From the NCBI RefSeq assembly GCF_044324875.1, contig NZ_CP172185.1: a stretch of DNA of 64,000 nucleotides; one strand, given 5' to 3'. The notes under the pieces were generated by a model. That model was given only the letters and a program-made list of their open reading frames with translations. It made no database searches and was not told the origin of the DNA. Both the position numbers and the translations under genes were made by a program. Below, piece after piece: positions 55,027-57,996 of the stretch. Source of the DNA: Escherichia coli. Its GTDB lineage: Bacteria > Pseudomonadota > Gammaproteobacteria > Enterobacterales > Enterobacteriaceae. How positions within the stretch are numbered: position 1 is the stretch's first letter; each line of letters opens with the position of its first letter.

Positions 55027-56391
55027 ATGATTAGTGCATTCGATATTTTCAAAATTGGGATTGGTCCCTCCAGTTCGCATACCGTGGGGCCAATGAATGC
55101 CGGAAAAAGTTTTATTGATCGGCTGGAAAGTAGCGGCTTATTAACCGCGACGAGCCATATTGTGGTCGATCTGTACGGGTCGTTGTCACTGACGGGCAAA
55201 GGCCATGCCACGGATGTCGCCATTATCATGGGACTGGCAGGAAACAGTCCGCAGGATGTTGTCATTGATGAGATCCCTGCATTTATAGAGTTAGTAACGC
55301 GCAGCGGGCGGCTGCCAGTGGCATCTGGTGCGCATATTGTTGATTTTCCTGTAGCAAAGAACATTATCTTCCATCCCGAAATGTTGCCTCGCCATGAGAA
55401 CGGAATGCGGATCACTGCCTGGAAGGGACAGGAAGCGCTATTAAGTAAAACCTATTACTCTGTCGGCGGCGGGTTTATTGTCGAAGAAGAACACTTCGGC
55501 CTGTCGCACGATGTCGAAACGTCCGTACCTTACGATTTCCACTCAGCAGGTGAACTGCTGAAAATGTGTGATTACAACGGCCTGTCTATATCTGGTCTGA
55601 TGATGCACAACGAGCTGGCGCTGCGCAGCAAAGCGGAAATTGACGCAGGGTTTGCCCGTATCTGGCAAGTGATGCATGACGGTATTGAACGCGGGATGAA
55701 CACTGAAGGCGTGCTGCCTGGTCCGCTCAATGTGCCGCGTCGTGCCGTAGCGCTGCGTCGTCAGCTGGTTTCCAGCGATAATATCTCTAACGATCCGATG
55801 AATGTCATCGACTGGATCAATATGTACGCGCTGGCGGTTAGTGAAGAAAACGCAGCTGGCGGGCGCGTGGTGACGGCACCGACTAACGGTGCGTGCGGCA
55901 TTATTCCGGCAGTGCTGGCTTATTACGATAAGTTCCGTCGTCCGGTAAACGAGCGGTCAATTGCCCGCTATTTTCTGGCAGCGGGGGCTATTGGCGCGCT
56001 GTATAAAATGAACGCCTCCATCTCTGGCGCGGAAGTCGGCTGTCAGGGGGAGATTGGCGTGGCCTGTTCAATGGCGGCGGCAGGGTTAACTGAACTCCTG
56101 GGCGGCAGTCCGGCGCAGGTGTGCAATGCGGCGGAAATCGCGATGGAGCATAACCTTGGGCTGACCTGCGATCCGGTTGCCGGACAGGTACAAATCCCGT
56201 GCATTGAACGTAATGCCATTAATGCCGTGAAAGCAGTAAATGCCGCACGGATGGCGATGCGCCGCACCTCGGCACCGCGTGTTTCACTCGATAAAGTGAT
56301 CGAGACGATGTATGAAACCGGCAAAGATATGAACGATAAATACCGCGAAACATCACGCGGAGGACTGGCCATTAAAGTGGTCTGCGGCTGA
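55027..56391 (+). CDS. tdcG: L-serine dehydratase TdcG (454 aa)
   Basis: Fe-S L-serine dehydratase family ([23 protein letters not shown]...); second ATG chosen. Confidence 0.9.
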
Positions 56392-56414
56392 CATTGCTGT
56401 CAGCTTTCATCCTT

Positions 56415-56441
56415 GGGTGCACAAATGTGCACCTTTTTTTG
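56415..56441 (+). terminator. tdc operon intrinsic terminator
   Basis: ggtgcac-aaat-gtgcacc hairpin followed by tttttttt after the tdcG stop. Confidence 0.65.
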
Positions 56442-56664
56442 TGATCTGCCGCAAATAGAGAATGAATATTCTCTTGCGATTAATTTAGTAGAAAATTCTT
56501 ATCCATCTCCGTTATTTCAAAGTCTTGATTGTGAAGATTTTCTCTGACCTCGCGCGTATCATTTCTTTATTCTAATAACTCGCCTGCAAAAACGTAGACC
56601 GCATATCGCCTTGATGCGGCTCGGAAAAAAATAATAAGCCCTACAAAATATTGAGCGAGAAATT

Positions 56665-57996
56665 ATGGAAATTGCATCGAATAAAGGCGTCATTGCAGAC
56701 GCTTCGACCCCGGCGGGTCGTGCTGGAATGAGTGAGAGCGAGTGGCGAGAAGCGATCAAATTCGACAGTACTGACACAGGCTGGGTGATTATGAGTATCG
56801 GGATGGCGATTGGCGCGGGGATTGTTTTTCTCCCGGTGCAGGTCGGTTTGATGGGATTGTGGGTATTTTTGCTCTCATCGGTGATTGGTTACCCGGCAAT
56901 GTATCTGTTTCAGCGGTTGTTTATTAATACGCTGGCAGAATCACCAGAATGTAAAGATTACCCGAGTGTCATTAGCGGTTATTTAGGTAAAAACTGGGGC
57001 ATCCTGTTAGGTGCGCTCTATTTCGTAATGCTGGTGATTTGGATGTTCGTCTATTCCACCGCCATCACCAACGATAGTGCTTCCTACCTGCATACCTTCG
57101 GCGTGACGGAAGGGTTGCTGTCAGACAGTCCCTTTTATGGTCTGGTACTGATTTGCATTCTGGTGGCGATCTCCTCACGCGGCGAGAAATTGTTATTCAA
57201 AATTTCGACGGGCATGGTGCTGACCAAGCTGCTGGTGGTCGCGGCGCTGGGCGTGTCGATGGTGGGAATGTGGCATCTGTATAACGTCGGTTCGCTACCG
57301 CCGCTGGGGCTGCTGGTGAAAAACGCCATTATTACGCTGCCGTTTACCCTGACGTCGATTCTGTTTATCCAGACGTTAAGCCCGATGGTGATCTCTTATC
57401 GCTCGCGGGAAAAATCAATTGAAGTGGCGCGGCATAAAGCATTGCGGGCAATGAATATCGCGTTTGGCATTTTGTTTGTCACCGTCTTTTTCTACGCCGT
57501 GTCGTTCACGCTGGCGATGGGACATGACGAAGCGGTAAAAGCCTACGAGCAGAATATTTCCGCGTTGGCGATTGCCGCACAGTTTATTAGCGGTGACGGC
57601 GCAGCGTGGGTGAAAGTGGTCAGCGTCATTCTCAATATCTTTGCTGTAATGACTGCATTCTTTGGCGTCTATTTAGGCTTTCGCGAAGCAACGCAAGGGA
57701 TCGTAATGAACATCCTGCGTCGCAAGATACCTGCCGAGAAGATTAACGAAAATCTCGTTCAGCGCGGCATCATGATTTTCGCCATTTTGCTGGCCTGGAG
57801 CGCCATCGTACTGAACGCCCCGGTGTTGAGCTTCACCTCTATCTGTAGCCCGATTTTCGGCATGGTAGGGTGCCTGATCCCGGCGTGGCTGGTTTACAAA
57901 GTACCGGCATTGCACAAATACAAAGGGATGTCTCTGTACCTGATTATCGTCACTGGTTTGTTGCTTTGTGTTTCTCCGTTCCTGGCATTTTCTTGA
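56665..57996 (+). CDS. cyuP: Cysteine/serine transporter CyuP (YhaO, 443 aa)
   Basis: HAAAP-family transporter paralogous to TdcC/SdaC; translation matches YhaO. Confidence 0.9.
   Translation: MEIASNKGVIADASTPAGRAGMSESEWREAIKFDSTDTGWVIMSIGMAIGAGIVFLPVQVGLMGLWVFLLSSVIGYPAMYLFQRLFINTLAESPECKDYPSVISGYLGKNWGILLGALYFVMLVIWMFVYSTAITNDSASYLHTFGVTEGLLSDSPFYGLVLICILVAISSRGEKLLFKISTGMVLTKLLVVAALGVSMVGMWHLYNVGSLPPLGLLVKNAIITLPFTLTSILFIQTLSPMVISYRSREKSIEVARHKALRAMNIAFGILFVTVFFYAVSFTLAMGHDEAVKAYEQNISALAIAAQFISGDGAAWVKVVSVILNIFAVMTAFFGVYLGFREATQGIVMNILRRKIPAEKINENLVQRGIMIFAILLAWSAIVLNAPVLSFTSICSPIFGMVGCLIPAWLVYKVPALHKYKGMSLYLIIVTGLLLCVSPFLAFS

Follow-up and report, generated by a model that had tools for sequence, protein, structure and literature searches.

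The leaders that come closest to the one discussed here are those of rpoS and glmS, which are activated by small RNAs (sRNAs) through an anti-antisense mechanism (DsrA, RprA and ArcZ in the case of rpoS, GlmZ in that of glmS), and that of cfa, which is stabilised by RydC. In these leaders, a segment of the 5' untranslated region can pair with the Shine-Dalgarno (SD) sequence. The present work deals with a stretch of 64,000 nucleotides of Escherichia coli (contig NZ_CP172185.1, assembly GCF_044324875.1), referred to in full as the window, and with the spacer in it that separates tdcG of the tdc operon from cyuP (also called yhaO). The latter belongs to cyuPA, which encodes a cysteine importer and a desulfidase. 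It is proposed, with a probability of roughly 0.6, that this spacer is the complete control region of cyuPA, placed after the tdc terminator and provided with a leader that is targeted by sRNAs. The anatomy of the region, its conservation, the covariation of a hairpin in the leader and the conserved complementarities to sRNAs were observed in this analysis, and the regulation by CyuR, Crp and FnrS is taken from the literature.

The cyuP leader resembles those of rpoS, glmS and cfa in that a segment of it, CUCGC, can pair with the SD, the candidate sRNA site overlaps this anti-SD segment, an A-rich stretch of the Hfq type is present, and activation by an sRNA has been reported (PMC3349551). It differs from them in its short length (96 nt as predicted) and in its inhibitory helix, which has about 5-9 bp, no covariation and a small predicted opening. 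It also possesses a covarying hairpin with an invariant loop, which has no counterpart in those leaders.

Another point of comparison is Spot 42. cAMP-CRP represses this sRNA, which in its turn represses catabolic operons activated by CRP. The targets of its multi-output feed-forward loop are said, in the account of Beisel and Storz from 2011, to include galK, srlA, fucI, nanC, sthA, gltA and others. Like these targets, cyuPA is CRP-activated, glucose-repressed and catabolic (PMC9040844), and has a candidate site near its SD for the unstructured 5' region of Spot 42. Unlike them, cyuP is not among the targets reported in the literature searched, and its match in E. coli is of 7 bp only.

Two other kinds of systems are close to this locus. 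Among the promoters that are activated by the Lrp/AsnC family and have several phased A/T-rich sites, that of ilvIH (with Lrp) is comparable, as is the autoregulatory site of CyuR at cyuR-mdlAB, since the spacer, too, is the single strong target of an AsnC-family regulator (PMC5934670) and carries several conserved GAAAA/TTTTC boxes over about 90 bp, down to the -35 region of cyuP. In contrast to them, the cyuP box agrees with the published 23-bp CyuR motif at just 15 of the 23 positions. Similarly, in OxyS-fhlA and in the kissing complexes of antisense RNAs, two complementary apical loops meet, and the cyuP leader and FnrS also have such invariant loops, that of FnrS being AAGCGAUG. Here, however, the complementarity is within chance and not colinear with the pairing of the FnrS 5' end, and it is therefore to be taken as a lead only.

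The spacer and its leader hairpin

With tdcG ending at 56391 and cyuP starting at 56665, the spacer covers 56392-56664. This is the 273-bp gap between the tdc operon and cyuP that a preliminary description of the window had given, and the AT-rich stretch named there is found as well, the GC content being 38% in the spacer and 35% in its core (56456-56556), against 51-53% in the flanking genes. The folding of the whole spacer in E. coli alone is not significant (z = -1.5). In K-12, the counterpart of the spacer is 3258011-3258284 on the minus strand. A 461-bp query around it was found in 5,398 of the 5,426 complete E. coli genomes, where tdcG and cyuP are the annotated neighbours.

For the wider comparison, one genome was taken per species with CyuP, and this gave 80 loci of the Enterobacterales, spanning Escherichia, Salmonella, Citrobacter, Enterobacter, Lelliottia, Kluyvera, Buttiauxella, Yersinia, Edwardsiella, Proteus, Photorhabdus and others. 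It was observed that tdcG lies upstream of cyuP in only about one-third of these loci, although the same conserved blocks occur in the same order in the 230 bp or so before the cyuP ATG across the loci compared. Thus, the control region belongs to cyuP and travels with it.

Within the leader lies a conserved hairpin on the + strand (56593-56623), which is documented by covariation, by the diversity of its stems and by a covariance model. The preliminary description had seen it as a second hairpin, ccgcat...atgcgg, about 70 bp before cyuP, and it is indeed there, with its 5' base 66 nt before the ATG. The core stem joins CCGCAT (56599-56604) to ATGCGG (56614-56619) across a 9-nt loop, ATCGCCTTG (56605-56613), and outer pairs connect 56593-94 and 56596-97 with 56620-23. 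As RNA, the loop reads AUCGCCUUG, of which AUCGC is invariant. Counted from the predicted transcription start, the hairpin lies at +31 to +51 of the leader.

A stem-loop around AUCGC is present at the equivalent place of the leader in nearly all Enterobacteriaceae and in Proteus. At least 11 distinct stem sequences enclose the one loop motif, with a median per-sequence p of 0.03. They include CCGCAU/AUGCGG, GUACUGC/GCAGUAC, AUUGCGU/ACGCAAU, UCGCAU/AUGCGA, UCGUCA/UGACGA, ACUCAUUA/UGGUGAGU, UGCCGCG/CGCGGUA, CGUUGC/GCAACG, ACCGUAU/AUACGGU and CUCAUUA/UGGUGAG, among others. The loop itself comes in two formats, namely the 9-nt loop of Escherichia, Citrobacter and Salmonella, and a UCGC tetraloop closed by an A-U pair in Enterobacter, Lelliottia and Pluralibacter. 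Because the loop lengths differ, RNAalifold missed the hairpin on the MAFFT alignment, and separate fixed-length alignments, A2 (25 sequences) and A3 (10 sequences), were therefore built. In A2, 83.6% of the cells are paired, against 23-40% when the partners are slid, and 6 of the 10 pairs have changed on both sides. In A3, 90% are paired, with changes on both sides in 3 of the 7 pairs; the slid controls over both alignments gave 19-57%. The covariation score of neither alignment was reached by any of 500 shuffles. Hence, the hairpin shows the compensatory changes across species that are expected of a conserved cis-regulatory RNA.

A covariance model of the first loop format (R1) gave one match per locus in 28 loci and none elsewhere in 549 kb. 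A search of 55800-57200 against Rfam 15 returned only sub-threshold chance matches, on the terminator, the best with 21.5 bits against a gathering score of 50. A riboswitch would be a conserved multi-helix aptamer with a pocket for a ligand, coupled to an expression platform; what is found is a single short covarying hairpin, with no other conserved helices. On this comparative evidence, the second hairpin is a genuine and undescribed conserved leader RNA structure.

It had also been suggested in the preliminary description that the spacer may hold a leader attenuator. As an attenuator or terminator, the hairpin would stop transcription unless antitermination, dependent on cysteine, took place. 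A stable hairpin between promoter and start codon would suit such a device, as would the induction of cyuPA by cysteine of more than 50-fold (PMC9040844, PMC5423876). However, the stem is followed on the + strand by CUCGGAAAAAAA, which is not a U-tract, and the terminator scan raises no flag at this place. No conserved open reading frame and no Cys codons were found in the leader, nor was a conserved alternative (antiterminator) pairing of the stem arms, and CyuR already accounts for the induction by cysteine (PMC11408624, PMC5934670). The only upstream reading frame, of six codons at 56614-56634 (AUG CGG CUC GGA AAA AAA UAA, or MRLGKK), has its first codon in the 3' arm of the hairpin, encodes no Cys and shows no conservation beyond Escherichia. 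Attenuation is thus highly improbable, and of the earlier interpretation it is the promoter and the regulator sites, dealt with below, that stand. The role of the hairpin is most likely in post-transcriptional control by sRNA and Hfq.

The repeat CCGCAT-N9-ATGCGG could also be read as DNA, that is, as the operator of a dimeric factor such as the LysR-type YhaJ or CyuR. YhaJ is known to shift a probe that covers some 300 bp upstream from the yhaO ATG (PMC4699771), the repeat is inside this probe, and the sites of LysR-type regulators are dyads of the T-N11-A type. Yet the arms change completely between genera and still remain complementary, with the central AUCGC alone being fixed, and G-U pairs of the + strand are tolerated, which is the signature of an RNA; an operator would have kept its arms. 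Further, the repeat occupies positions +31 to +51, which are downstream of the -10 hexamer that is conserved. The covarying arms, the fixed centre and the tolerated G-U pairs together argue against a protein operator on DNA, which is considered improbable, though slightly less so than attenuation.

Some loci depart from the general picture. In those of Kluyvera and Buttiauxella (L043-L049, L055-L057, L059, L062, L066, L068), the AUCGC hairpin is absent and GGAAnAUCAnnCUGUA stands in its place; the CUCUGUA part of the latter lengthens the complementarity to Spot 42. The AUCA of Kluyvera pairs with an SD that reads GUGAG, and Buttiauxella retains GCGAG. One locus (L053, CACSKA010000008.1), labelled Chryseobacterium sp. 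18061, is an enterobacterial cyuP locus with 89% protein identity and the complete promoter and leader of the enterobacterial type. A similar leader occurs in L060 (CACSJR010000005.1), labelled Citrobacter sp. 18056 and from the same project, and the assembly of L053 is probably mislabelled or contaminated. In E. coli itself, NZ_CP195347.1 (H20) and about 33 other genomes are of note. A few complete genomes match the query in part only; in H20, query bases 357-422 alone match, at two places in the record. The region is missing from 28 complete E. coli genomes, and one copy is plasmid-borne. The partial and absent matches suggest an occasional disruption or loss of cyuP in this species, as has been noted for CFT073 (PMC5423876).

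Candidate RNA partners of the leader

FnrS, an sRNA induced by FNR, is reported to activate yhaO (PMC3349551, PMC10653809; the former cites Boysen 2010 and Durand & Storz 2010), and fnrS rescues the production of hydrogen sulfide in an fnr mutant (PMC10653809). A candidate site for it is leader box 1, CUCGCCUGCA (56579-56588, + strand), which is complementary to FnrS nt 1-9, GCAGGUGAA. The box has the form UCRCCUGC (+12 to +19), and its CCUGC (56583-87) is invariant in 36 of 36 sequences. The base before CCUGC, which is opposite U6 of FnrS, is A or G in 35 of the 36 aligned leaders and U in one. As both A and G pair with U6, a purine at this place keeps the pairing.

For the scoring of such sites, fnrS and spf (Spot 42) were taken from K-12, and the conservation of their seeds elsewhere was assumed from the consensus lines of Rfam. 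Duplexfold of full-length sRNAs with the leader gave meaningless long duplexes (observed -40.0, shuffle mean -42.4) and was replaced by windowed, accessibility-corrected scans. In these scans, box 1 is the best site for FnrS, with a hybrid energy of -15.3 and a total of -8.6 kcal/mol. It was equalled in 8 of 2000 dinucleotide shuffles of the leader (p = 0.004) and ranks first among the 60 regions around starts of open reading frames in the window. In a permuted-seed test over 33 lineages, 2 of the 400 decoys were as good. These p-values, like those of the other sRNAs, are indicative only, since the lineages are related and the hypotheses were formed after the conserved boxes had been seen. What is found is a conserved complementarity to the conserved single-stranded region of FnrS, as is expected of its targets. 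The FnrS box mapped in the cyuP leader is a new prediction.

The box is also of interest for its possible contact with the ribosome binding site. The SD-like GAGCGAG (56653-56659, + strand) lies 5 nt before the start codon of cyuP (56665-56667, + strand), and its AGCGAG is nearly invariant, with G79 and G81 of the alignment being invariant and A78 and C80 being conserved at 90% or more. In both the minimum-free-energy and the centroid folds of the E. coli leader, CUCGC (56579-83) pairs with GCGAG (56655-59). The same folds pair UAAU with AUUA and so close the leader around the hairpin. When the FnrS box was masked, the mean of the predicted accessibility of the SD and AUG went from 0.44 to 0.52, with 24 of the 30 lineages showing an increase, whereas a control mask brought no rise. 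The pairing of box 1 with the SD may, on these folds, fit an anti-antisense activation by FnrS; a stabilisation of the mRNA is an equal alternative.

A second conserved box, box 2, with the sequence AGCCCUACA (56637-56645, + strand), is a candidate site for Spot 42, being complementary to its nt 1-8, GUAGGGUA. It ends 19 nt before the AUG. Its CCUAC (56640-44) is conserved, and CCCUAC takes +71 to +76. With a hybrid energy of -12.8 and an accessibility-corrected total of -10.1 kcal/mol, this was the best of all the sRNA sites tried, and 8 of 400 decoys did as well in the permuted-seed test. The complementarity is laid out differently in the various genera, as UUACCCUAC in Enterobacter, ACCUCU-A-CCUAC in Citrobacter and Salmonella, AUCUGU-CCCUAC in Pseudescherichia, and CUCUGUAC-N20-CCUAC in Yersinia and Buttiauxella. 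The conserved complementarity is to the unstructured region I of Spot 42 and is near the ribosome binding site, as is expected of its targets. A box by the SD of a Crp-dependent and glucose-repressed operon would fit the pattern of Spot 42 and makes it a candidate regulator. In the literature searched, no link of Spot 42 to yhaO or cyuP was found.

Between the hairpin and box 2 runs an A-rich stretch, AAAAAAAUAAUAAG (56625-56638, + strand), made of consecutive A-R-N triplets; an A-rich run is present in all the genera. Hfq prefers (ARN)n, and the stretch, a candidate site for the distal face of this protein, probably binds it.

The two boxes have further features in common. CCUGC (56583-56587) and CCUAC (56640-56644) differ by one base, and so do the 5' ends of FnrS (GCAGG) and Spot 42 (GUAGG); the FnrS box also offers the Spot 42 5' end a weaker, alternative place to pair. 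Apart from the leader, UCUCUGUACCUG at 57931-57942, in the coding region of cyuP and 82-93 nt before the start of cyuA, matches the Spot 42 seed with -17.2 kcal/mol. This is the strongest match to the 5' seed of Spot 42 among the 60 start regions of the window.

It is conceivable that both complementarities are coincidental, that the boxes serve other partners (a protein, RNase E, standby binding of the ribosome or other sRNAs), and that FnrS activates cyuPA indirectly. The seeds are short, 6-9 nt, and the p-values of about 0.004-0.02 come from tests that were run after inspecting the data and on related sequences. Indirect routes via marA, soxS and cyuR have been considered (PMC10653809), and regulation of cyuP by Spot 42 is, as said, not reported. 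On the other hand, box 1 corresponds to the very 5' terminus of the one sRNA for which activation of cyuP was already reported, and its variation is restricted to purines, which preserves the pairing with FnrS U6. The complementarity to Spot 42 is retained in four sequence layouts and suits the known control of cyuP by glucose and Crp (PMC9040844). Coincidence is thus rather unlikely, though it has to be reckoned with, and the sites are preferred here as sRNA targets.

The loop of the hairpin may have partners of its own. Its AUCGC(C/U) is complementary to the core of the SD, AGCGA, and on the sequence-based alignment it is exactly this pairing that RNAalifold chose as the consensus. The hairpin could accordingly be seen as a self-contained translational element, in which the loop UCGC pairs with the SD core GCGA as a pseudoknot and keeps basal translation low without any sRNA. 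The four core pairs (columns 31-34 with 88-91) can form in 35-36 of the 36 sequences, 72.6% of the cells are paired over the six-pair helix tested, the lone sequence with an AUCGA loop has the SD GUGAG and so retains an A-U pair, and AGCGAG is conserved far beyond the needs of a weak SD. Yet the helix would have just 4-5 bp, both of its sides are nearly invariant, and with 99-101 of 500 shuffles being as good, there is no statistical support for it. Further, Buttiauxella and Photorhabdus combine AUCA with GCGAG, uncompensated, and the conservation of CCUGC and CCUAC would be left unexplained. A role of the hairpin independent of sRNAs is thus unlikely, and more so than coincidence of the two boxes.

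The same loop, as AUCGC(U/C), is complementary over 5-6 nt to the invariant apical loop of FnrS, AAGCGAUG. The loop of FnrS and the SD region of cyuP share AAGCGA, so that FnrS and the SD might be rivals for the hairpin loop; such a competition is a lead only.

Lastly, two pairings of RyhB are possible in the interval 56652-56676, one of its seed, AUUGCUCAC, with UUGAGCGAG at the SD and the other of its nt 51-65 with the AUG region. Both sites are weak, with totals of -1.8 and -2.2 kcal/mol, and 25 of 400 decoys were as good. cyuP is listed as a candidate target of RyhB (PMC7154689), and CyuA is an iron-sulfur enzyme.

Terminator, promoter and regulator sites

At the start of the spacer, on the + strand, lies the intrinsic terminator of tdcG and the tdc operon (56415-56441), identified by terminator scan and folding. 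It begins 24 nt past the tdcG stop codon and consists of an 8-bp GC-rich stem, GGGTGCAC-AAAT-GTGCACC (56415-56434) with AAAU as the loop, followed by T7 (U7 in the RNA). Its folding energy is -13.4 kcal/mol, with z = -3.2 and 1 of 200 shuffles being as good. A GC-rich stem-loop with a U-tract at the 3' end of the operon is what defines such a terminator. The strong terminator of the preliminary description is hence well founded, and so is the surmise that the spacer holds the cyuPA promoter and regulator sites, for which both the literature and a conserved -10, A/T boxes and a CRP-type site speak. The tdc and cyu promoters are discrete (PMC9040844).

The -10 hexamer, TATCAT (56557-56562, + strand; TATGAT in most genera), is conserved at 90-100% and sits 11 bp after the TTTTTCTC box. 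There is no -35 element at 17 +/- 1 bp from it, and a sigma-70 scan of the spacer gave no two-hexamer promoter. The conserved -10, without a workable -35 and without a two-hexamer promoter in the scan, therefore points to a promoter dependent on an activator. Its fixed distance from the activator boxes and its poor -35 are what such a sigma-70 promoter should have. Transcription is predicted from this -10 to start near 56569 (+ strand), at an A that is the 7th base past the hexamer in a conserved CAT context, and the leader would then be about 96 nt long. In K-12, this start would be NC_000913.3 position 3258106, on the minus strand.

Upstream, a candidate CRP-type site, TGTGATCTGCCGCAAA (56440-56455, unstranded like the boxes below), overlaps the end of the T-run of the terminator and is centred at about -121.5 from the predicted +1. 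It agrees with TGTGA-N6-TCACA at 8 of 10 positions in E. coli. Of 32 representative species, 75% have a site that scores 8-9 of 10, while 2.3% of shuffles do so. The centres of these sites are always at -121.5/-122.5 or, a helical turn beyond, at -131.5/-132.5, and this fixed helical face is as expected of an upstream site in a CRP promoter. A cyuP-lacZ fusion was shown to be Crp-dependent and glucose-repressed, with the directness of Crp action left open (PMC9040844). For FNR, the best agreement with the consensus in the E. coli spacer is 7 of 10, and the upstream site fits CRP better. In Enterobacter, Citrobacter sedlakii and Atlantibacter, half-sites resembling a CRP/FNR hybrid, TTGAT....ATCAC and GTGAT....ATCAA, are seen at the place of the CRP-type site, and these could have a bearing on the anaerobic induction that is reported for Salmonella.

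Between this site and the -10, three conserved A/T boxes are candidate sites of CyuR, an activator of the AsnC/Lrp family. Box A, TAGAGAAT-GAAT-ATTCTCT (56456-56474), is an inverted repeat, and its TAGAAA core has a column conservation of 80-90% among 27 genus-level representatives. Box B, GTAGAAAATTCTTA (56488-56501), is also conserved and reads AGAAAAT..TTTCTTA in other genera. The promoter-proximal box, TTGATTGTGAAGATTTTCTCTG (56525-56546), spans -44 to -23, in the -35 position, and is the most conserved of the three; in it, TTGTGAnnTTTTTCTC (56529-56546 in E. coli) is conserved at 80-100%. The published CyuR motif, GAAwAAATTGTxGxxATTTsyCC (PMC11408624), has its best match in the spacer at 56522-56544 on the minus strand. 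With 15 of 23 positions, this match is not significant alone, about 0.6 such matches being expected in the spacer by chance, and it coincides with the most conserved box. The boxes are probably sites of CyuR, an assignment that we infer, as the agreement of the motif with the promoter-proximal box is just 15/23. By genomic SELEX (systematic evolution of ligands by exponential enrichment), the tdcG/yhaO spacer was found to be the single strong genomic target of CyuR/DecR (PMC5934670), and chromatin immunoprecipitation with exonuclease treatment (ChIP-exo) is consistent with this (PMC6237786, PMC11408624). In enterohaemorrhagic E. coli, YhaJ binds to the stretch of about 300 bp that lies upstream of yhaO (PMC4699771). 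The promoter, with its regulators, is known biology, and the conserved CRP site is a new prediction.

A proposed scheme of cyuPA control

From the features described, the working of the region may be pictured as follows. Transcription of tdc would end at the hairpin and U7 of 56415-56441. The CRP-type site and the GAAAA/TTTTC boxes, which reach down to -24, would recruit cAMP-CRP and cysteine-bound CyuR to the promoter, that is, to the conserved -10 TATCAT without a -35, and the leader of 96 nt would begin near 56569. In E. coli and many of its relatives, CUCGC of box 1 would pair with GCGAG of the SD and close the leader around the hairpin, which would display its invariant AUCGC loop. Under anoxia, FnrS on box 1 would free the SD or else stabilise the mRNA, so that expression may rise when the oxygen-labile CyuA can work. 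Hfq would sit on the A-rich (ARN)n stretch. In the presence of glucose, Spot 42 beside the weak SD, GAGCGAG, would lower translation and so reinforce the loss of activation by CRP. In this scheme, the transcription start, the protein-box assignments, the pairing of the bases, the way in which activation comes about and the partner of the hairpin loop are what we infer.

A bolder version may be considered, in which the leader is an undescribed, widely conserved module of post-transcriptional integration, made of the hairpin, the FnrS box, the Spot 42 box and possibly RyhB at the SD and AUG. FnrS would signal anoxia and activate, Spot 42 would signal glucose and repress, and RyhB would signal iron. 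The loop of the hairpin would dock onto the apical loop of FnrS in a kissing contact, or it would act as an anti-SD, to be mimicked and displaced by FnrS, whose AAGCGAU is the counterpart of AAGCGAG in the SD. This extended version is a speculative one and is held to be doubtful.

A number of findings weigh against the reading of the spacer as a complete control region with an sRNA-targeted leader. In E. coli alone, the hairpin folds with -10.7 kcal/mol, which gives z = -1.2 and is equalled by 23 of 200 shuffles. This fold is within chance, and the reality of the hairpin therefore rests on the comparative evidence. Similarly, the Spot 42 match is marginal when E. coli is taken by itself, 114 of 2000 shuffles being as good (p about 0.06). 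The helix of the loop with the SD is without covariation, being invariant on both sides, and so is that of the 5' box with the SD, where changes in the box break the pairing and are uncompensated. For the contact of the FnrS loop with the hairpin loop, the energy is not significant (998 of 2000 shuffles and 124 of 400 decoys were as good), and this contact would be non-colinear with the pairing at box 1. FnrS has another possible site, over the AUG, which would be repressive, and the masking of box 1 brings a small gain in accessibility only. As the lineages are related, the p-values are not independent. Finally, the spacer matches the published CyuR motif weakly, and the leader is defined solely by the conserved -10.

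In E. coli and Salmonella, it is mainly by way of the cyuPA operon that cysteine is imported and hydrogen sulfide produced under anaerobic conditions, and links of this operon with virulence, with antibiotic tolerance and with the reduction of azo dyes and drugs in the gut have been reported (PMC9040844, PMC11408624, PMC10653809). The same studies raise the questions of whether the action of Crp at cyuPA is direct, by what means FNR and FnrS increase its expression, and why an operon induced by cysteine is produced even when its enzyme is unable to function. The analysis offers answers that can be tested at base resolution, namely the conserved CRP-type site at 56440-56455, the FnrS box at 56579-56588 over the anti-SD segment, and the candidate Spot 42 site at 56637-56645. 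Together with the hairpin motif, which could join the collections of RNA families, these are new predictions drawn from sequence comparison. They would refine a known regulon, and no paradigm is changed by them. If the extended module were true, the fermentation of cysteine would be licensed only when cysteine (through CyuR), low glucose (through CRP and Spot 42) and anoxia (through FnrS) coincide.

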